DNA from: a virus
Strand: one strand, 5' to 3'
DNA length: 64,000 nucleotides
Virus genome (UHGV): UHGV-0286546
A model generated the notes under the pieces. The model saw nothing but the letters and a program-made list of their open reading frames with translations. It did not search any database and had not been told where the DNA came from. The position numbers and the translations under genes were made by a program. Of this stretch, positions 6,987 through 43,940 are shown in pieces (within the stretch, counting starts at the first letter, position 1; each line of letters opens with the position of its first letter).

Positions 6987-7859
6987 CTATAAAGCAGTTA
7001 AATATTCTTCAAATTTTAATATTTCGATATCAGGAAAATTTTTATTCTGTGGAATATCACGTAAGTATTGAGCATACTGTAATAATTTAAAATAAATGTT
7101 TTCCGAATCTTCTGTTTTAATACCTAATTTAGTTTGTTGTTCAAAGCGTGTGATTCGCCATAATACATTTTCTAAATTTTGGTTGCGTTCTTCTCTTTTT
7201 AATTCTTCTTTTGATTTTTCTCTTTCGATAATATAAGGCTCTGCAACGTTACTTTCAAACGAAGATAATTCATCTGCCACTTTTAAAGATAACTCGGCAT
7301 TAGAAACATACTTACGTAATACTTTCGAAAGATCAGCTTTTGTAATATATTCTGCTTTTTTTAATGTGTTAATTAATTCATCTATTTCTTCTTTTGAATA
7401 TACATCTTCGTTACAAGCTTTTTCTGATATTAATTTTTTTACTTCGTCGGCAGTAACGTAATTTGTATCTTTAAGTAAATCAGATTCTGTTAGTACTACA
7501 TTGTTTGCTAAAACTTTTCCATTAATTGTTGGCTTATTTGAAAGAGTATTATAATCTAAATCAGTATCTTTAAGTTTATTTAAAACCGTATCGTGGGTAA
7601 ATTTAATTTTAGCGTTTATTTCACTTAATCTTGTATCGATATTCTTGTGTAATTCTTCAAAATCTTTAACAGTTGTAGTTACAAATTCAGCAAAATTATC
7701 TGTTTCAACATAACTTCCTTTCGGTTGAATACCCAAATCTGATAAAGATAAATTACCATTTAATTCGATATGATTAATAGAAGGTCTATTTTCTAAAGTG
7801 AGATAATCTTTAGAAGGAGTATATCCAGCAACTATTTTATCACCTTGTCTAATAGTCAT
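6987..7859 (-). CDS. tail fiber protein (290 aa) with shared N-terminal fiber motif and coiled-coil C-terminus
   Basis: N-terminus LTLENRPSINHIELNGNLSLSDLG matches motif of 2633..4426 and 8736..9236. Confidence 0.6.
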   Translation of the reverse strand: MTIRQGDKIVAGYTPSKDYLTLENRPSINHIELNGNLSLSDLGIQPKGSYVETDNFAEFVTTTVKDFEELHKNIDTRLSEINAKIKFTHDTVLNKLKDTDLDYNTLSNKPTINGKVLANNVVLTESDLLKDTNYVTADEVKKLISEKACNEDVYSKEEIDELINTLKKAEYITKADLSKVLRKYVSNAELSLKVADELSSFESNVAEPYIIEREKSKEELKREERNQNLENVLWRITRFEQQTKLGIKTEDSENIYFKLLQYAQYLRDIPQNKNFPDIEILKFEEYLTAL

Positions 7860-11527: not shown

Positions 11528-12436
11528 TTAAACTTCGAATTTACATTTATCAGGAAACATACTATTTAAGAATTGGTTAAGTCTAGGATATTGTCTATTA
11601 TTACCAACTGTATCATCAAAAACACTCAACCAATCTTCTTGTAACCAAGCGTCAGTTAGATCCTGATTTAATGTTATTTTTACATCGTTAATTTTTCTAG
11701 GTTTTCCTAATCCTTCGTCTGGGTATAAGTTTTTGTAGACACTACGTTTGTGTAATACTTTTGGAGTTTGACAAAATTCTTTAATACAAGATAATTTCAT
11801 CATTTGATTAAAATTAGCTTTATTTATAATAATAGGAAGATGTGATTCGTAATTATAATGACTACGACAATCTAATTTATTTAACAATTCGACTGCATAA
11901 TCAAAGCCATACTTCCAACGAGATTTTTTTATATTGTTTGCGTTTCTTTTTACTTCGGCATCTAATGTACCAAGACAAACATTTAATGCTTCATACCAGT
12001 TTCTAATTGGCTTTAATGCGAAGAAATCATCATTCATTAATACAAAATTATCAGATATTTCCTGGCAATTACAAGCAGCTAAATAATTTGTAATGCTATT
12101 TTTCCACTTGTCTTGATTCTGGATAGTCGGAATATAACGAACATTTTTAATCCAACTAGGCTTATATCCAATAATCCAAATACGTTTAAAATTACAGAAT
12201 TTAGCAATAGAACGTAAAGACATCCGTATATCTGGATTATTTTCACTTGCTTTTAAAATATATACTAAATCTAATTCTAAATCTGGTTTGTATATTTCAG
12301 TCGTTAAACATGGATTTAAGAAAGATCTTGCCTTTTCTGATAAAACATTGTGTGGGTAACTTATTTTCTGTTTATCAGCCCACTCTTTTGTATGTAACCA
12401 CGGCTGAGTAACAATCTTCCTTTTTGATTCTACCAT
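11528..12436 (-). CDS. hypothetical protein (302 aa), possible glycosyltransferase-like (NDD motif)
   Basis: ORF with strong coding signal; W/K/N-rich; LMNDDFF DxD-like motif; no confident family assignment. Confidence 0.5.
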   Translation of the reverse strand: MVESKRKIVTQPWLHTKEWADKQKISYPHNVLSEKARSFLNPCLTTEIYKPDLELDLVYILKASENNPDIRMSLRSIAKFCNFKRIWIIGYKPSWIKNVRYIPTIQNQDKWKNSITNYLAACNCQEISDNFVLMNDDFFALKPIRNWYEALNVCLGTLDAEVKRNANNIKKSRWKYGFDYAVELLNKLDCRSHYNYESHLPIIINKANFNQMMKLSCIKEFCQTPKVLHKRSVYKNLYPDEGLGKPRKINDVKITLNQDLTDAWLQEDWLSVFDDTVGNNRQYPRLNQFLNSMFPDKCKFEV

Positions 12437-12446
12437 GTTTATACAC

Positions 12447-12830
12447 TTATTTCTGCTTTATTGCGTTTGCTAATTTTTTTGCTGATATTTCAAGAGGATA
12501 CATAATACCACCGTTAGATTTAAGAAAATTATAAATCTTGGCTTCTAATTCTTCTGTACTAACCTCTTCTTCGATTGGTTTTTGACCTAATACATTATGA
12601 ATAGTATTCCAAACTTTATGTAATACAATATCTTGCTGTTCTTCGTTTAACTCATCAAAAGCATTAGAATGGTATACGGAGGTTTTTTGTAAAAGATCTT
12701 GAACTTCTTCATAGCTTTTCGCTTTAAGAATAACACTACTTTCAATATAATTCAATTTTTTAATTATACTGTTTGCAATTCTATTGAGCGGATTTAATGC
12801 TTCTATGAATAATTCTTTCGTTTTAGACAT
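12447..12830 (-). CDS. hypothetical protein (start revised to second Met; TAATG stop-start overlap with upstream gene)
   Basis: Internal ATG at minus-strand 12830 overlaps stop of 12830..13720 (TAATG), typical phage translational coupling. Confidence 0.5.
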   Translation of the reverse strand: MSKTKELFIEALNPLNRIANSIIKKLNYIESSVILKAKSYEEVQDLLQKTSVYHSNAFDELNEEQQDIVLHKVWNTIHNVLGQKPIEEEVSTEELEAKIYNFLKSNGGIMYPLEISAKKLANAIKQK

Positions 12831-28356: not shown

Positions 28357-28400
28357 AGTACGCCCCAGAAAAAAAAAATAAAAAAAATTCTGGGGTTTAT
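28357..28400 (+). terminator. terminator-like hairpin (CCCCAGAA-A-rich loop-TTCTGGGG + T run)
   Basis: Inverted repeat followed by TTTATTTTTTTC. Confidence 0.5.
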
Positions 28401-28535
28401 TTTTTTCGGTTTTACAAATAATAAATTTTCAGATATAAAATAATCATTCAAGAGTCAATAAAATGATTCTTTAGTTATAAGACATTGTGAATAGGAAATA
28501 ATATTAAACGAATTAGCCTTGGCAGCTAAACTGTT

Positions 28536-28574
28536 ATGTATTTGCCAAATAAAACAGAATATAAATATACATAA
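28536..28574 (+). CDS. candidate 12-codon leader mini-ORF (MYLPNKTEYKYT) upstream of tRNA cluster A
   Basis: ATG TAT TTG CCA AAT AAA ACA GAA TAT AAA TAT ACA TAA; codons largely match downstream tRNAs (Met, Leu, Pro, Asn, Thr-TGT, Glu); weaker case than 37719 and 43174 (see findings). Confidence 0.3.
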   Translation: MYLPNKTEYKYT

Positions 28575-28662
28575 CACCGGTAGTCTTAACGTTTATCTTA
28601 ACCGGCCTAGAGGGTAAAAGTAGATGTTTTTACTTAAAAATCTACGAAAGAAGCGTATCTAT

Positions 28663-28737
28663 CGCGGGGTAGAGCATTGGTAGATCACTAGGCTCATAAC
28701 CTAGAGGTAGGTGGTTCGATTCCATCCCCCGCAACCA
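28663..28737 (+). tRNA. tRNA-Met (anticodon CAT), possibly initiator-type (C1-A72 mismatch)
   Basis: Cloverleaf by eye: anticodon stem CTAGG/CCTAG, loop CTCATAA, T-loop TTCGATT, 3' ACCA encoded. Confidence 0.7.
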
Positions 28738-33723: not shown

Positions 33724-34355
33724 ACAAGTTTTGGTTTGTTAGTTTAGATAGGCTATAATTAAAGTAAGTAAGTTTGGAAGTTACGACACAGACCAAATAA
33801 CCTATCGTTTCCAAATTATCTTTATCGTTGTCGTGAAGGATAAAGAGTGAAAAACTAACGTTAAAGTGACAAAAAGTATACTTAATTATCCAAAGTATTG
33901 CCAATATCACTTGAATTTATGGGTGTCGTGTTTTCGAAAGAGCATGAAGGTCAGGGTCAATCCCAAAAGAGTCACGAACGTGGATTTCATATTTTACCTC
34001 CACCTGCCCATAATTTTTTATGCTCCGTCGTAGTCTTGGTGACCACTAGTTGAATGTCTATAGCTCCAGTCAATTAGTATGGGAATACTGTTCGAATCAG
34101 TTACGGGGTACCAATTTTTATGAGTAGTTTATTAGTTCTTCTCGCCTTGGAAAATTGAACTAGTGAATAGTCATCTTGTAATGGTAAACATTCTTGACTG
34201 AAACTAAAGAAAAGTTTATATGTTTATTAGAGTAATATGGTAAGCCGCGGCTGAGACTTATAAGGGTAAGTAGATATATAGATGTAATGAAAGTTTTACC
34301 ACAGTATAAAGATTAGTAATATGAAGAAAGAATTAAATGACGCGAGGATAAAATA

Positions 34356-34562: not shown

Positions 34563-34650
34563 GGAGGAATGGCAGAGTGGCTTAATGCAGCGGTTTACTA
34601 AACCGTCGTACCGAAAGGTGCCGTGGGTTCAAATCCTACTTCCTCCGCCA
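34563..34650 (+). tRNA. class II tRNA (88 nt, Ser-like architecture) with non-canonical anticodon loop TTACTAA (ACT by standard register)
   Basis: Acceptor GGAGGAA/TTCCTCC, anticodon arm (G)CGGT-TTACTAA-ACCG(T), variable-arm hairpin GTACC-GAAA-GGTGC, T-arm GTGGG-TTCAAAT-CCTAC, CCA encoded. Confidence 0.5.
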
Positions 34651-34657
34651 ATTTATT

Positions 34658-34751
34658 AGGTCTGTCGTTCAATGGTTAGGACACTAGGCTTATACCCTAG
34701 CGAGCGTCTGATTAACGCGAAATCCCAGTTCGAGTCTGGGCGGACCTACCA
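34658..34751 (+). tRNA. 94-nt tRNA-like gene: anticodon arm CTAGG-CTTATAC-CCTAG (TAT) followed by a 23-nt extra arm that itself looks like an anticodon stem-loop (GCGT-CTGATTA-ACGC)
   Basis: Acceptor AGGTCTG/CGGACCT, D-arm GTTC-AATGGTTA-GGAC, T-arm CCCAG-TTCGAGT-CTGGG, CCA encoded. Confidence 0.45.
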
Positions 34752-34971: not shown

Positions 34972-35046
34972 TATTATTTCCGGTTTTACAATATTTTTAA
35001 CAAGACATATATTTGTTTATAGATTAACAGAAAAAAGGAAGTGGAT

Positions 35047-36531
35047 ATGTCTGATAATAAAACAATGACTGAAAAAGGTGCTATTACTAATCAATCTACA
35101 TTAGACAAAGTTGTAGATTGGTTTTATCATGGAGCCGCATTACGTAGAGAAAAAAACAAAGACCGTATTATAGCTTTGTTTGATGATGCTTTTAAACAGG
35201 ATAAAACCAAAGCATTGCGTATTTTATTTTATATTCGTGATATTCGTGGTGGTCAAGGTGAAAGACGCATTTTTAGAATTTGCTTAAATCATTTGGCAAA
35301 AATAGAATCTGCTTGGTTAAAAGACAATTTGGCATTAATTGCTGAATACGGCAGATATGATGATTATTTGTGCTTGCTTGATACAGAAATTAAAAGTGCT
35401 GTAATTGATTTCGTTAAAGCACAATTAGATAAAGATATTGCTGCAATAGATAGCAATACACCTATTTCATTGCTTGCCAAATGGATGCCTTCCGTTACAA
35501 CCAAGAATAAAGAAAAAAGAAGATATTTAAATGCTCTTTTGAATTCTGGTAAATTTGGCACAGTAAAAAATTATAGACAAACGTTATCTAAACTTCGTGA
35601 TAAATTAAATATTGTTGAAAAGAATCTTTGCAATAAAGCCTTTGCTGAAATTGAATATTCTAAAGTTTCTTCTAATGCAATGTCTAAGTATTCAAAAACT
35701 AGAATTTCATCTGGATTAGCTGGTACTTTTTGGCGCAATGACTTAGATAGATTTAAAATGTATTTAGACGCTGTTAAAAACGGTAAAACAATCGACGGCA
35801 AAGAAGTAAAAATAAATGCAAAAACCTTATATCCATATGATGTTATTACAAAATATATGAGTGGTTATAGTATAAGTCATCAAGAAGATCCTGCAGCGGA
35901 AGCTCAATGGAATGCTTTACCTGATTATGTACCAGAGATTAACGGCATTGTAATTTATGATACTTCGGGTTCAATGTATGGATTACCTATGGCTGTATCT
36001 TTGTCGTTGGCTATTTATATTGCTGAAAGAAATAAATCAGAAGTTTGGCGTAATTATGTTATTCCATTCTCATCTAATGCGACTTGGAAAAAAGTAAAGG
36101 GTAACAATTTAGTAGAAAAAATTGAATCTATTTATACTGGAGATTGTTCAAATACTAATTTACAAGCAGCCTTTGATCTTATTTTAGGTAAAGCTATATA
36201 TGCGCAAGTACCTAAAGAAGATATGCCAAAACAGCTGATTATTATTAGTGATATGGAATTTGATTCGGTTTCTTCTAATAACCAAACTAATTATGAAGCT
36301 ATAAAAAGCAAATATAAGAAAGCTGGTTATGACTTACCACAATTAATCTGGTGGAACGTTGAATCAAGAAGCAATCAAACACCGATTACAGTAAATGATA
36401 AAAATTGTTTATTGCTTTCTGGCTGTTCACCGGTAGTTATGCAAGTAGCTTTGGGTGGTTCATACGATTTTATGGAAGCAATCGATAAAATTATTAACCA
36501 AGAACGTTATAGTTGCATCAATTATAATTAG
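35047..36531 (+). CDS. von Willebrand factor A (vWA) domain protein with DUF2828/TROVE-like N-terminal region
   Basis: MIDAS motif IVIYDTSGSMYG; N-terminal ALRILFYIRDIRGGQGERRIF block reminiscent of DUF2828-type proteins (uncertain); ATG at 35047 preferred over GTG at 35041. Confidence 0.6.
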   Translation: MSDNKTMTEKGAITNQSTLDKVVDWFYHGAALRREKNKDRIIALFDDAFKQDKTKALRILFYIRDIRGGQGERRIFRICLNHLAKIESAWLKDNLALIAEYGRYDDYLCLLDTEIKSAVIDFVKAQLDKDIAAIDSNTPISLLAKWMPSVTTKNKEKRRYLNALLNSGKFGTVKNYRQTLSKLRDKLNIVEKNLCNKAFAEIEYSKVSSNAMSKYSKTRISSGLAGTFWRNDLDRFKMYLDAVKNGKTIDGKEVKINAKTLYPYDVITKYMSGYSISHQEDPAAEAQWNALPDYVPEINGIVIYDTSGSMYGLPMAVSLSLAIYIAERNKSEVWRNYVIPFSSNATWKKVKGNNLVEKIESIYTGDCSNTNLQAAFDLILGKAIYAQVPKEDMPKQLIIISDMEFDSVSSNNQTNYEAIKSKYKKAGYDLPQLIWWNVESRSNQTPITVNDKNCLLLSGCSPVVMQVALGGSYDFMEAIDKIINQERYSCINYN

Positions 36532-37643: not shown

Positions 37644-37650
37644 TAAAAAA

Positions 37651-37680
37651 TTGCTTTACAAATAAAAATTTTATGATAAT
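37651..37680 (+). promoter_or_regulatory. sigma70-like promoter TTGCTT-N17-TGATAAT (module copy 1)
   Basis: Near-consensus -35/-10 spacing; homologous copy at 43106..43136; related TTGTTTTAC motifs at 36999 and 39397. Confidence 0.55.
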
Positions 37681-37718
37681 ATAAATATATAAATTAAAAA
37701 AGAAGGGTTCTATAAACT

Positions 37719-37778
37719 ATGATGAAAATGATGTTTAAATATATTAGATTTTATAAACAGCTCAATCGAGGTGTATAA
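37719..37778 (+). CDS. 19-codon leader peptide MMKMMFKYIRFYKQLNRGV (candidate attenuator leader for downstream tRNA cluster)
   Basis: RBS AGAAGGG; first 13 codons are only ATG, AAA, TTT, TAT, ATT, AGA = codons of the downstream phage tRNAs Met/Lys/Phe/Tyr/Ile/Arg(TCT). Confidence 0.5.
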   Translation: MMKMMFKYIRFYKQLNRGV

Positions 37779-37811
37779 TTTTCTATTACGTTTTTATCAG
37801 ATAGAATTTAA

Positions 37812-37850
37812 AAGCCTCGAGAATAAGAATCGAGGCTTTATTATTATAAG
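37812..37850 (+). terminator. intrinsic terminator (AAGCCTCGA-N9-TCGAGGCTT + T-rich) between leader ORF and tRNA-Tyr
   Basis: 9-bp perfect stem; leader 3' end contains identical TCGAGG able to compete for the 5' arm. Confidence 0.6.
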
Positions 37851-38042: not shown

Positions 38043-38600
38043 TTGTTGAGTTATAACAGATTAAAAAATTTTAGAAAATTACGAAAACTAGCTATATTAC
38101 AAGGATTTGGCGGAAAATGTCAATGTTGTGGTTATAACAAATGCGTTCAAGCTTTAGAATTTCATCATTTAAATTGTAATGATAAAGAATTTTCTATTAG
38201 TACCATTATGAATAAAAACTGGAACGAAATAAAAAATGAATTAAAAAAATGTATTTGTGTGTGTGCCAATTGTCATAGAGAAATACACAATAATTTATTA
38301 GAAATTGATGTTAATAAACAATATTTTGACGAAAACGCCGTACAAGATTATGAATGTGCTATAAATAAGGTAACAAAATATAGCAAATGTCCAATTTGCG
38401 GAGCATTAAAACCAGAATATAACAAATTTTGTTCTCGAAAATGTGCCGCGAAATCAAGAGATAGAGTAAATTGGGAACAATACGAAAGTTTAGTTTATAT
38501 TATTGATAATAAAATTGAATCTATTAATAGTATTGCTTCTAAATTAAATATTTCTTGGCAAGCTGTAAAGAAAAGATATAAAAAATTAAAATCGCAATAA
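38043..38600 (+). CDS. HNH homing endonuclease (185 aa, TTG start with AGGGAG RBS) inserted inside tRNA operon
   Basis: CQCCGYNKCVQALEFHHLNCN ... CANCHREIHNN = HNH/zinc-binding signature. Confidence 0.7.
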   Translation: MLSYNRLKNFRKLRKLAILQGFGGKCQCCGYNKCVQALEFHHLNCNDKEFSISTIMNKNWNEIKNELKKCICVCANCHREIHNNLLEIDVNKQYFDENAVQDYECAINKVTKYSKCPICGALKPEYNKFCSRKCAAKSRDRVNWEQYESLVYIIDNKIESINSIASKLNISWQAVKKRYKKLKSQ

Positions 38601-42556: not shown

Positions 42557-43102
42557 ATGAGTAGATTTAGAACAATTGTTGAAAATGCTATTGCCAAAGT
42601 AAATAAAAAACTTTTAAAAGAACGTTGTGAATCGCTTTTTATAGCACCAATGAGTCTACATAATGATGAGCGAGAAGTAGTAGAAGTACTTTATAATCCT
42701 TCGAAAGCAGAATTCAATAGAGCATTTAGAGAATGGGGTACTATACGAGGACTTGCTGACAATGAAGATGTAATTATTTGGGATGGATATAAAGCTGTTC
42801 ATGATTCAGTAAAAGAACAATTAGAAAAACAGTATGGTGCAACCTTTCCAACTAATTACGGGACATTATGCAGATTTGAAACAACACGCGAATATCCATT
42901 AATGCTCGAAGATGATACAAAACAGTATAGTCATGGTAAAGAATTAGATCCAGTAAAGCAAACCTTATTTAAAAATCCTAACTTTACACGATTATTTTCA
43001 GAAGAGGAAATACTAAATGCTGATTCTCATAATTTTGCTAATGGAGAATTCGGTGAGTTTCAAAATGATCCAGAAATATTAAAAAAGTTTGGATATGATT
43101 AA
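42557..43102 (+). CDS. leader-family member (start at MSRFRTIVENAIAK; track ORF starts 27 nt earlier), paralog of 38914..39390
   Basis: Family N-terminus at internal ATG; body homologous to 38914..39390. Confidence 0.55.
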   Translation: MSRFRTIVENAIAKVNKKLLKERCESLFIAPMSLHNDEREVVEVLYNPSKAEFNRAFREWGTIRGLADNEDVIIWDGYKAVHDSVKEQLEKQYGATFPTNYGTLCRFETTREYPLMLEDDTKQYSHGKELDPVKQTLFKNPNFTRLFSEEEILNADSHNFANGEFGEFQNDPEILKKFGYD

Positions 43103-43105
43103 AAA

Positions 43106-43136
43106 TTGCTTTACAGATATAAAATTTTATGATATT
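43106..43136 (+). promoter_or_regulatory. sigma70-like promoter TTGCTT-N18-TGATATT (module copy 2)
   Basis: ~90-bp region homologous to 37647..37735. Confidence 0.5.
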
Positions 43137-43173
43137 GTATAAATATAAAATAAAAAAGAGAGTTCTATAAATT

Positions 43174-43239
43174 ATGATTAATACGAATATTTTACATTGT
43201 TGGTGTCATCATTTACTTCACAGAGGTGTTGATGCTTAG
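43174..43239 (+). CDS. 21-codon leader peptide MINTNILHCWCHHLLHRGVDA (candidate attenuator leader for Cys-His-Trp tRNA cluster)
   Basis: RBS AAAAGAGAG; CAT TGT TGG TGT CAT CAT ... CAC = 7 of 21 codons are His/Cys/Trp, exactly the three tRNAs immediately downstream. Confidence 0.5.
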   Translation: MINTNILHCWCHHLLHRGVDA

Positions 43240-43272
43240 TTATACGTGTTAATTCATAAAATTATTAGTTTC

Positions 43273-43308
43273 AAGCCTCTAGGATAATTACTTTCTAGAG
43301 GTTTTTTT
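43273..43308 (+). terminator. intrinsic terminator (AAGCCTCTAG-loop-CTAGAGGTTT + T7) between leader ORF and tRNA-Cys
   Basis: 10-bp stem + TTTTTTT; leader 3' end AGAGGTG can pair with the CCTCT 5' arm. Confidence 0.65.
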
Positions 43309-43313
43309 ATTAT

Positions 43314-43387
43314 GGACTGTTGGTAGAGTGGTTATACGTTAGTCTGCAAAACTAATTACACAAGTTCGAATCTTGTACAGTCCTCCA
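43314..43387 (+). tRNA. tRNA-Cys (anticodon GCA), U73 discriminator
   Basis: Acceptor GGACTGT/ACAGTCC, anticodon arm TTAGT-CTGCAAA-ACTAA, T-arm CAAG-TTCGAAT-CTTG, TCCA end. Confidence 0.75.
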
Positions 43388-43430: not shown

Positions 43431-43506
43431 GTGTGCGTAGCTTAATTGGTAAAGCGTCGGTTTGTGGTACCGAAGGATACGAGTTCGAATCTCGCTGCTC
43501 ACCCCA
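43431..43506 (+). tRNA. tRNA-His (anticodon GTG), C73 discriminator, no encoded G-1
   Basis: Anticodon arm TCGGT-TTGTGGT-ACCGA, D-arm GCTT-AATTGGTA-AAGC, T-arm ACGAG-TTCGAAT-CTCGC, one acceptor mismatch. Confidence 0.7.
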
Positions 43507-43512
43507 CTTTAT

Positions 43513-43586
43513 AGGGACTTAGTTTAATGGTAAAACACTAGTCTCCAAAACTAGATATAGGAGTTCGATTCTCTTAGTCCTTGCCA
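43513..43586 (+). tRNA. tRNA-Trp (anticodon CCA)
   Basis: Acceptor AGGGACT/AGTCCTT, anticodon arm CTAGT-CTCCAAA-ACTAG, T-arm AGGAG-TTCGATT-CTCTT, GCCA end. Confidence 0.75.
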
Positions 43587-43589
43587 ATT

Positions 43590-43940
43590 CTAACGATATT
43601 TAAAGTATAATGTATCTGCTTCATATCTTATTCTGTTATAACGTATTATATTTTTTACATCTTCTATATCAGAGTCTGGAACAGTAAACCATTCACCACG
43701 CATTTTATAATTTTTACGACGTAATTCTCTATGTATTAATCTTTCGATTTTAAGTAAATGATTTCTTTCACATTCAAATTCTTCAGTAAACAATAACACC
43801 AAATCATTCGGATGTCCGGTTTGTAATTCTTTTATTCTTTTATTAGGATCTTTAGATATACCTACTTTTATATGACCGTTATTATCTCCAATCATATACA
43901 TATAATCTAAAGGTTGTATTTCATCATTTATTATTTGCAT
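43590..43940 (-). CDS. T5orf172/GIY-YIG-like (MUG113-type) domain protein, putative homing endonuclease
   Basis: YMYMIGDNNGHIKVGISKDPNKRIKELQTGHPNDLVLL ... GEWF matches T5orf172 core. Confidence 0.65.
   Translation of the reverse strand: MQIINDEIQPLDYMYMIGDNNGHIKVGISKDPNKRIKELQTGHPNDLVLLFTEEFECERNHLLKIERLIHRELRRKNYKMRGEWFTVPDSDIEDVKNIIRYNRIRYEADTLYFKYR

Follow-up and report, generated by a model that had tools for sequence, protein, structure and literature searches.

How does a phage express transfer RNA (tRNA) genes that begin 2–3 nucleotides (nt) past the tail of a transcription terminator? The question is raised by the virus genome UHGV-0286546 (UHGV), of which we analyzed a stretch of 64,000 nt on one strand, 5′ to 3′ (the window). 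On its plus strand, tRNA-Cys, tRNA-His, and tRNA-Trp follow an intrinsic terminator, and there is no space for a promoter between the terminator and tRNA-Cys, so these tRNAs can be made only by transcription that passes the terminator. The terminator closes a module in which a promoter leads to a short open reading frame (ORF) rich in His, Cys, and Trp codons. This module (copy 2) has a diverged counterpart (copy 1) in front of a different tRNA cluster. From computation alone, we consider it probable that the module is a ribosome-mediated (leader-peptide) transcription attenuator that would place phage tRNA genes under demand-driven control. An earlier note on this sequence had proposed a leader-peptide attenuator matched to the downstream tRNAs, and all of the computational tests that we ran support this proposal.

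Leader codons and the tRNA genes behind them

The promoter, Shine–Dalgarno (SD)-like site, leader ORF, and terminator of copy 2 were all found where the earlier note had placed them (Table 1). As in known leader attenuators, the 5′ leader carries a short ORF with a start codon and a ribosome-binding site, from which translation is predicted, and an intrinsic terminator separates this ORF from the genes that would be regulated. An independent terminator scanner called the same hairpin (43273–43304) and its T-run. The identities given earlier to the three tRNA genes, Cys(GCA), His(GTG), and Trp(CCA), were confirmed by ARAGORN and by Rfam scores of 56–68 bits. The −10 element of copy 2 reads TATTAT in two near-identical contigs (L004 and L005), and a G(T/C)TTTACA...TATAAT-like motif also lies upstream of other tRNA clusters in the window and its relatives. 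The SD-like site of copy 1, AGAAGGG, stands at the same distance from its ATG (11 nt) as that of copy 2, and AAGGA/GGAG-like motifs are found upstream of the ATG in the window’s long ORFs.

To gauge the codon content of the leaders, the codons of the window’s 40 longest ORFs served as background and 593 ATG-initiated mini-ORFs of 10–40 codons, from all six frames, as the comparison set. The four His, two Cys, and one Trp codons counted in the earlier note were borne out, making up 7 of the 20 non-start codons of leader 2. Measured against the composition of the phage’s own proteins, as that note had proposed, this is a marked excess, since the three amino acids account for 4.0% of long-ORF codons (binomial P = 8.5e-6). 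Leader 2 ranks first among the 593 mini-ORFs both for its count of His, Cys, and Trp codons (7) and for the longest uninterrupted run of them (6, with the runner-up at 4). Every codon of this run, codons 8–13, can be decoded by one of the three tRNAs downstream. Copy 1 is followed by tRNA-Tyr, tRNA-Ile(GAT), an HNH gene, tRNA-Phe, tRNA-Lys, tRNA-Met, another ORF, and tRNA-Arg(TCT), and the 12 consecutive codons after its ATG are all decodable by these downstream tRNAs; this is again first of 593 (runner-up, 9). Enrichment in codons that report on the regulated function is found, consequently, in copy 2 and in its paralog.

Aligning the two modules bore out the homology that had been claimed from the promoter to the ribosome-binding site: the copies are 88% identical (66/75) from promoter to ATG. 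Identity is 57% in the body of the ORF, 61% in the spacer after the stop codon, and 73% in the terminator. The common ending of the leaders also holds, with both ORFs closing on xGA GGT GTx, and the GAGGTGT motif starts, in both copies, at a distance of exactly 49 nt from the A of the ATG. The argument that conserved flanks around a swapped sensor speak for function over chance is supported by these comparisons, and the swapped-sensor idea is reinforced by the codon-level differences between lineages that are described below.

Alternative pairings in the leader RNA

Both leaders fold far below shuffled controls (z about −4), and the same elements recur in copies 1 and 2: a helix between the SD and spacer, a start-codon helix, a hairpin between the sensor and region 2, and the terminator (3:4). 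Region 2 reads AGAGGUGUUGAUG in copy 2, a longer stretch of which GAGGTG is part, and CGAGGUGU in copy 1; in each, it pairs with the sensor codons. Together, the two long-range helices are predicted to bury both the SD and the AUG once the leader RNA is complete.

Region 2 resembles the 3′ arm of the terminator and is therefore able to pair with the 5′ arm and the bases that precede it. The earlier suggestion that GAGGTG acts as an antiterminator strand against the terminator 5′ arm is supported by duplex energies, by shuffling, and by a footprint model. Across five leaders, the region 2:3 duplex has an energy of −11.4 to −17.1 kcal/mol versus −13.5 to −16.5 kcal/mol for the terminators. For copy 2 the value is −14.3 kcal/mol (P = 0.006 versus shuffles), and in each of the five leaders regions 2 and 3 are more complementary than in 1000 dinucleotide-shuffled versions of the ORF (P from 0 to 0.03).

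The footprint model placed a 27-nt ribosome footprint on a transcript cut just 5′ of the terminator 3′ arm. In all five leaders, the antiterminator was the minimum free energy (MFE) structure with the A site at codons 2–13 and was absent from codon 14 to the stop. In copy 2, the pairs from 43230:43273 to 43218:43284 were present in the MFE structure with the ribosome at codons 2–13, and for the three leaders of the Cys/His/Trp (c2) type no antiterminator was predicted without a ribosome. Codon 13 is the final stall position with a predicted antiterminator, and the sensor block ends at that same codon, bar one more His codon (codon 16; codon 14 in the relative L047). In every leader, the stop codon overlaps region 2 or falls just beyond it. 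An exclusive antiterminator that depends on ribosome position, with the 1:2, 2:3, and 3:4 pairings of a leader attenuator, is thus found in silico.

If the leader is translated, these pairings would allow the following sequence of events. Transcription would start at the 43110–43138 promoter or enter from upstream genes, and a ribosome would load on the leader and translate it while RNA polymerase advances. Given fast decoding of the His, Cys, and Trp codons, the ribosome would reach the stop codon and cover region 2; the terminator would then form and transcription would stop 2–3 nt before tRNA-Cys. With no ribosome loaded, regions 1 and 2 would pair and the terminator would form as well. A scarcity of charged tRNA-His, tRNA-Cys, or tRNA-Trp would stall the ribosome at codons 8–13, where it would cover region 1 and free region 2 to pair with the terminator 5′ arm. 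With the antiterminator formed, polymerase would read through, and tRNA-Cys, tRNA-His, and tRNA-Trp would be made. The new tRNAs would end the stall and termination would resume, amounting to negative feedback on decoding capacity. Copy 1 would apply the same mechanism, with different sensor codons, to its Tyr/Ile/Phe/Lys/Met(/Arg) cluster. The physiological signal could be codon-usage demand, the loss of host tRNAs, or amino-acid starvation.

Conservation in relatives and competing explanations

Relatives were collected from ENA and Logan assemblies through two anchor proteins, the DUF2828 protein and the neighboring T5orf172 protein, which gave 51 loci (numbered with the prefix L). The conservation sample comprises three lineages and two or three paralog types. 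The leader ORF is conserved in L001, L002, L004, L005, L036, and L047. The first four are near-identical contigs (95–98% nt identity) and keep both leaders. In two of them (L001:10305–11830 and L002:6190–7715), the copy-2 promoter and its leader are separated by two inserted genes, one for a 285-aa protein and one for a SAM lyase, and the leader starts 8 nt past the SAM-lyase stop codon. Consequently, the conserved unit runs from the SD to the terminator and does not include the promoter, and the attenuator would in such genomes also gate read-through from upstream protein genes. In L001 and in L047 the leader comes directly after an upstream gene, and the promoter is thus not obligatory.

Two further lineages, both from other metagenomes, are diverged. 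In L036, whose DUF2828 anchor protein is 63% identical (37% different), both modules are present: copy 2 encodes MINIVKLNCWCHHLLHRGVDA before tRNA-Cys and tRNA-Trp, and copy 1 encodes MMNSVIKYFYFYKQLNRGV before a Tyr-like element that is followed by tRNA-Lys, tRNA-Phe, and tRNA-Ile(TAT). L047, reached through the T5orf172 anchor (69% identical), carries MMKNVNLHCWYHFHTSLRC before tRNA-His and tRNA-Trp. All lineages, and the paralog too, keep the ATG; most have an SD-like site before it, though L036 copy 2 does not clearly do so. The distance from the ATG to GAGGTGT is 49, 49, 49, 49, and 50 nt. The earlier note held that the mini-ORFs would be fortuitous if related phages did not keep them in frame; this is not what was found, as L036 and L047 keep the ATG, the distance, the H-C-W block, and the terminator.

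The peptide itself is another matter. The amino acids of codons 2–7 vary freely between copies and lineages, with compensation in the strand after the stop codon. For example, codon 4 of L001 copy 1 has changed from ATG to ACG, which loses a Met codon and turns a U·G pair into C-G. In L047, a 1-nt indel before GAGGTGT changes the peptide tail (..TSLRC*) and keeps the motif, so the conserved “RGV” is an RNA signal and not a peptide motif; the His codons stay in frame across this indel (CAT TTT CAT versus CAT CAT TT). Free residues at positions 2–7, a shifted tail, and a retained RNA are what one would expect if the peptide served as a leader and not as a functional protein. In an alignment of seven sequences, with the structure derived from one of them, 80% of structure cells pair versus 37–48% in slid controls, nine pairs are changed on both sides, and the covariation score is 0.199 versus 0.045–0.094. 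All terminator cells are paired, with two compensatory pairs, as are 79% of cells in the region 1:2 helix (helix 3), where three pairs are changed on both sides. For the antiterminator, 81.5% of cells pair versus 17–55% in slid controls; its core is invariant, and one flanking pair covaries between A-U and C-G by module type but is broken in L047.

Conservation of this kind also bears on the alternative that comes closest, a structured 5′ leader that acts independently of translation, either as a processing or stability element of the tRNA precursor or as the binding target of a protein or a tRNA, the ORF and its codon content being by-products of constraints on RNA structure. Such a leader would fit the fact that conservation is strongest in RNA helices, where changes are compensatory, that GAGGTGT is kept as nucleotides and not as peptide, and that the lost Met codon of L001 improves a base pair. 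Several sensor substitutions suit the helix too; L047 C11Y, for instance, turns G·U into A-U. We nevertheless judge it unlikely, as it leaves unexplained why the loop and 5′ strand hold six consecutive His, Cys, or Trp codons in the one frame of a conserved ATG with an SD-like site, as well as a paralog with a codon set for its own tRNAs, and an Ile codon that switches between ATT and ATA together with the anticodon. Also against it are the His codons that stay in frame across the L047 indel, a stop codon that always falls on or just after region 2, and the lack of any match to T-box or another Rfam family.

If the leader reads decoding capacity, its codons should follow the tRNAs that it precedes. 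The earlier-mentioned Ile switch is one case: in copy 1, the window pairs an ATT codon with tRNA-Ile anticodon GAT, and L036 pairs ATA with TAT. The window also has an AGA codon with tRNA-Arg(TCT) and three internal Met codons with tRNA-Met; L036 lacks AGA and tRNA-Arg(TCT), and has one internal Met codon and no tRNA-Met. In copy 2, the L036 cluster is without tRNA-His and the leader shows H8>N, and the L047 cluster is without tRNA-Cys and the leader shows C11>Y. Leader codons thus appear to track tRNA cargo in part, with changes in the expected direction, each a single event.

A third, diverged leader candidate was found in L035 (12250–12530), upstream of tRNA-Pro(TGG) at 12454. Its mini-ORF (12265–12324) encodes MITLSIHNLLPQQQPKRNC, with a sensor block PQQQP, and its start context is like that of the c1 and c2 modules. 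Overlapping its stop codon is GATAGGATATTT, 12 nt that repeat the 3′ arm of the terminator (12358–12391) exactly, with a duplex energy of −12.5 kcal/mol versus −9.9 kcal/mol for the terminator. The candidate has no SD, a promoter-like site lies between its terminator and the tRNA, and nhmmer did not detect it; we consequently count it as supporting evidence only.

Two further observations concern individual clusters. The Tyr-like element of L036 (6139–6232) has an anticodon arm, GGAGA CTGTAAA TCTCT, identical to that of the window’s tRNA-Tyr(GTA); its acceptor stem and T arm are good, its D region is aberrant, and it carries a long insert. It was called by neither ARAGORN (introns allowed) nor Rfam and is therefore not counted as a confirmed tRNA; it may be a disrupted or unconventional tRNA-Tyr. 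On the minus strand of L046 (reverse complement, about 7140–7340), a terminator GGTAGC...CTACC with a T-run abuts tRNA-Pro and tRNA-Gln, and the 5′ end of this tRNA-Pro, CGAGGTGTAGCTCAG, opens with CGAGGTGTA, a sequence shared with region 2 of copy 1.

Several points weigh against an attenuator. The 11-nt spacing from SD to ATG is at the long end of the range for the window’s long ORFs. The codons of copy 1 are AT-rich and common anyway in a 30% GC genome (background 27%); copy-1 enrichment alone is weak evidence, and AT-richness cannot account for copy 2. Leaders of the copy-1 type are predicted to form the antiterminator even when no ribosome is present. In full-length RNA at equilibrium the terminator is always preferred, so the switch would have to be kinetic and co-transcriptional, as in classical attenuators. 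L036 retains three His codons although its cluster lacks tRNA-His, and L047, whose cluster lacks tRNA-Cys, retains Cys codons and gains Tyr and Phe codons; the absent tRNA genes may lie elsewhere in these partly assembled genomes. One antiterminator pair is broken in L047, and the covariation rests on few independent events within three lineages and two or three paralog types. The L046 terminator has neither a leader ORF nor a promoter between it and tRNA-Pro, so regulation does not follow from the mere presence of a terminator immediately 5′ of a tRNA. Finally, extra tRNA is no help if the real shortage is of the amino acid.

A constitutive leaky terminator or insulator, with a fortuitous ORF and passage by unregulated read-through or a phage antitermination factor, would have the L046 arrangement in its favor, as well as the terminator in every full-length MFE structure and the abundance of short ORFs in AT-rich genomes (593 in the window). 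It is a little less likely again than a structured leader: both copies rank first of the 593 mini-ORFs, each matched to its own cluster, the 3′ end of the ORF is significantly complementary to the terminator 5′ arm, and ORF length, frame, and sensor block are kept where flanks have diverged or been rearranged. Neither of these explanations accounts for two (possibly three) paralogs with cluster-matched sensor codons. Very improbable is a micro-protein gene with its own terminator and an incidental position near tRNAs, such as a Cys/His metal-binding peptide; HCWCHH, of the form H-C-x-C-H-H, does resemble a metal-binding motif, and the ORF is conserved and comes with its own start codon, SD-like site, and terminator, yet we rejected it on a paralog that shares promoter, SD, length, tail, and RNA architecture without any Cys or His, on a frameshifted tail in L047 and a C-terminus and residues 2–7 that are not conserved, and with no detectable homologues for comparison with a peptide of 19–21 residues.

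A leader-peptide attenuator, which we favor, would be narrowly distributed. An nhmmer profile found no further module copies over the 51 loci. L037, L041, L044–L046, and L048–L051 have neither module, L035 has neither c1 nor c2, and several of these loci carry other tRNAs; the element thus occurs only within a sub-clade and at two tRNA clusters (three counting the L035 candidate). A blastn search of INPHARED gave no close relative, only unrelated tRNA-Trp and tRNA-His matches. In IMG/VR, four DNA patterns and the neighboring protein gave no true match (29 matches to GTTCTATAAAYTATGAT were chance), and in JGI metagenome contigs the three matches to GTTCTATAANNTATGAT-N(29-59)-GAGGTGT were all chance. 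A generic detector for repeats of the terminator 3′ arm at ORF ends recovered L036 copy 2 only, was too strict, and was dropped.

Genomic setting and known systems

The window has about 30% GC and encodes a tail sheath, helicases, a DUF2828 protein, and homing endonucleases, along with 20 tRNA genes, all on the plus strand (ARAGORN). Relatives of the DUF2828 protein are found on contigs of 212–254 kb from animal and human gut metagenomes. The source phage is an uncultured large myovirus. The end of the copy-2 transcription unit abuts a convergent T5orf172 endonuclease gene (43590–43940, minus strand; PHROG and Pfam matches).

Table 1. Positions in the window of the two leader modules, their predicted RNA elements, and the tRNA genes after copy 2
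Feature	Position	Strand	Details
Copy-2 module	43102–43313	+	promoter, SD-like site, 21-codon ORF, intrinsic terminator
Sigma-70-like promoter	43110–43138	+	−35 TTTACA 43110–43115, 17-nt spacer, −10 TATTGT 43133–43138; read from sequence
Extended −10 TGn	43130–43132	+	part of copy-2 promoter
SD-like AAGAGAG	43156–43162	+	11 nt 5′ of leader ATG
Leader mini-ORF	43174–43239	+	21 codons + TAG; peptide MINTNILHCWCHHLLHRGVDA; ATG ATT AAT ACG AAT ATT TTA CAT TGT TGG TGT CAT CAT TTA CTT CAC AGA GGT GTT GAT GCT TAG
Proposed sensor codons 8–13	43195–43212	+	CAT TGT TGG TGT CAT CAT = H C W C H H
Additional His codon	43219–43221	+	beyond sensor block
Region 1:2 hairpin	43202–43236	+	region 1 43202–43217, within sensor codons; region 2 43222–43236, AGAGGUGUUGAUGCU, codons 17–21; MFE pairs
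Long-range helix	43172–43259	+	start-codon region 43172–43189 : post-stop spacer 43241–43259
SD helix		+	SD and spacer 43158–43167 : 43263–43272, bases just before terminator
Proposed antiterminator	43218–43284	+	region 2 43218–43236 : 43267–43284 (pre-terminator bases and terminator 5′ arm); excludes terminator
Intrinsic terminator	43273–43311	+	12-bp stem 43273–43304, −15.3 kcal/mol, then T7 run
tRNA-Cys (GCA)	43314–43387	+	ARAGORN; Rfam 65.3 bits; begins 2–3 nt past terminator tail
tRNA-His (GTG)	43431–43506	+	ARAGORN; Rfam 56.1 bits
tRNA-Trp (CCA)	43513–43586	+	ARAGORN; Rfam 68.1 bits
Paralogous copy 1	37647–37848	+	−35 37655–37660, −10 TAATAT 37677–37682
Copy-1 leader ORF	37719–37778	+	MMKMMFKYIRFYKQLNRGV
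Copy-1 terminator	37811–37839	+	

The window’s tRNA clusters at 28663, 34563, 37058, 38618, and 39453 have no comparable leader ORF. Before the first of these, a large cluster that opens with tRNA-Met at 28663, about 220 nt of structured sequence (28400–28662) lie between a promoter-like site and the tRNA. This stretch has several hairpins and is conserved across lineages (L035:2370–2625; around L041:1780); it lacks a leader ORF, matches nothing in Rfam at E ≤ 1, and may represent either a leader of another kind or an unknown RNA that is processed. A tRNA-like element at 34022–34300 and in L036 (6610–6800), called by neither ARAGORN nor Rfam, has a 7-bp acceptor stem, a GTTCGAATC T-loop, and an ACCA end. 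The approximately 180 nt after it are conserved in L036, where they lie downstream of tRNA-Phe. The element stands about 900 nt upstream of the DUF2828 gene (35041–36531), which PHROGs label “RNA-binding protein”, and could be a partner non-coding RNA of that protein. At 34563–34751, ARAGORN called an unusual pair, a tRNA-Ser with anticodon ACT and a 94-nt tRNA-Ile with anticodon TAT, also present in L001 and L037. Homing endonuclease genes of the HNH type (38043–38600, plus strand) and of the T5orf172/GIY-YIG type (the convergent gene behind copy 2) lie inside or beside tRNA clusters, and the tRNA content next to them varies by lineage (Cys-His-Trp, Cys-Trp, His-Trp), which suggests that endonucleases drive turnover of the tRNA cargo.

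In a broader reading that we regard as doubtful and put forward only tentatively, the modules would be a family of re-programmable decoding-capacity sensors, their codons swapped to suit the downstream tRNAs and, in the boldest form, serving as a counter-defense alarm. Host anticodon nucleases or other tRNA-depleting immunity would then stall the leader ribosome, and replacement phage tRNAs would be switched on only at that point.

The clusters of tRNA genes in T4, T5, and other phages have been proposed to compensate for codon usage and to evade tRNA-cleaving defenses (PMC10264068, PMC11555353). The window resembles T4- and T5-like tRNA arrays in coming from a large, lytic-type phage with homing endonuclease genes interspersed. 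The papers that we found discuss roles of the tRNAs, not codon-sensing control. If attenuation is confirmed, expression of phage tRNAs may be inducible instead of constant, which bears on the debate between codon compensation and escape from tRNA-targeting defenses. The supply of tRNA would be regulated codon by codon through translation feedback, and attenuators would be modular, with a constant scaffold and a sensor that is swapped and co-evolves with its cargo. The element of about 150 nt might also serve as a synthetic sensor of specific tRNA availability.

Among known attenuators, the his leader of E. coli and Salmonella (hisL, RF00514) is close in plan. Like the phage element, it combines a short ORF containing a His-codon run with a terminator and with hairpins that alternate among the 1:2, 2:3, and 3:4 pairings, and what it senses is again how fast ribosomes move through His codons. 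Only RF00514 among the leader families gives even a weak full-length alignment (copy 2: 21.1 bits, E = 0.16). The His_leader threshold of 49 bits is far above the scores of copy 2 and copy 1 (16.3 bits), so the element is not a hisL homologue. Phe_leader scored 13.4 bits on the wrong strand, and a gathering-level Rfam scan of the window returned tRNAs only and none of the curated leader families (His, Trp, Thr, Leu, Phe). Unlike hisL, the phage element mixes three amino acids in its sensor and would regulate tRNAs instead of biosynthetic enzymes, and its finished leader is also predicted to fold back and sequester its own SD and AUG.

Mixed sensors have precedents. The ilvGMEDA, ilvBN, and thr leaders hold codons for several amino acids (Ile, Leu, and Val; Thr and Ile), and stalling at any of them relieves termination. 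The ilv, thr, and trp leaders share the geometry seen here, with the sensor ending about 10–13 nt before the antiterminator strand and the stop codon near region 2; the classical trp and his attenuators place sensor end, stop codon, and region 2 in the same way. Whereas the ilv, thr, and trp leaders regulate enzymes that make the sensed amino acids, the output of the phage element would be tRNA itself, and the loop would therefore close on decoding capacity and not on amino-acid supply. The combination of His, Cys, and Trp belongs to no common biosynthetic pathway and follows only the identity of the downstream tRNA genes.

Attenuation of pheST, with its pheM leader, and the T-box likewise couple tRNA or codon status to expression of translation machinery for that amino acid. 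Both control aminoacyl-tRNA synthetase genes, not tRNA genes, and the T-box senses uncharged tRNA by direct RNA–RNA contact, without translation; neither module matches a T-box in Rfam even at E ≤ 10. We do not claim attenuator-like leaders for the E. coli tRNA genes pheU and pheV, which were considered as a possible precedent; PMC7049720 describes leaders of 3–4 nt and no attenuation. In open-access papers and preprints, we found no report of leader-peptide attenuation of tRNA genes in phages or bacteria. The known targets of leader-peptide attenuation are amino-acid biosynthesis and aminoacyl-tRNA synthetase genes, and tRNA genes are usually treated as constitutive or growth-rate controlled. 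By analogy, the function and architecture of the phage element would be those of the his, trp, and ilv attenuators, and what appears to be new is what is regulated, namely tRNA genes, and the modular swap of the sensor.

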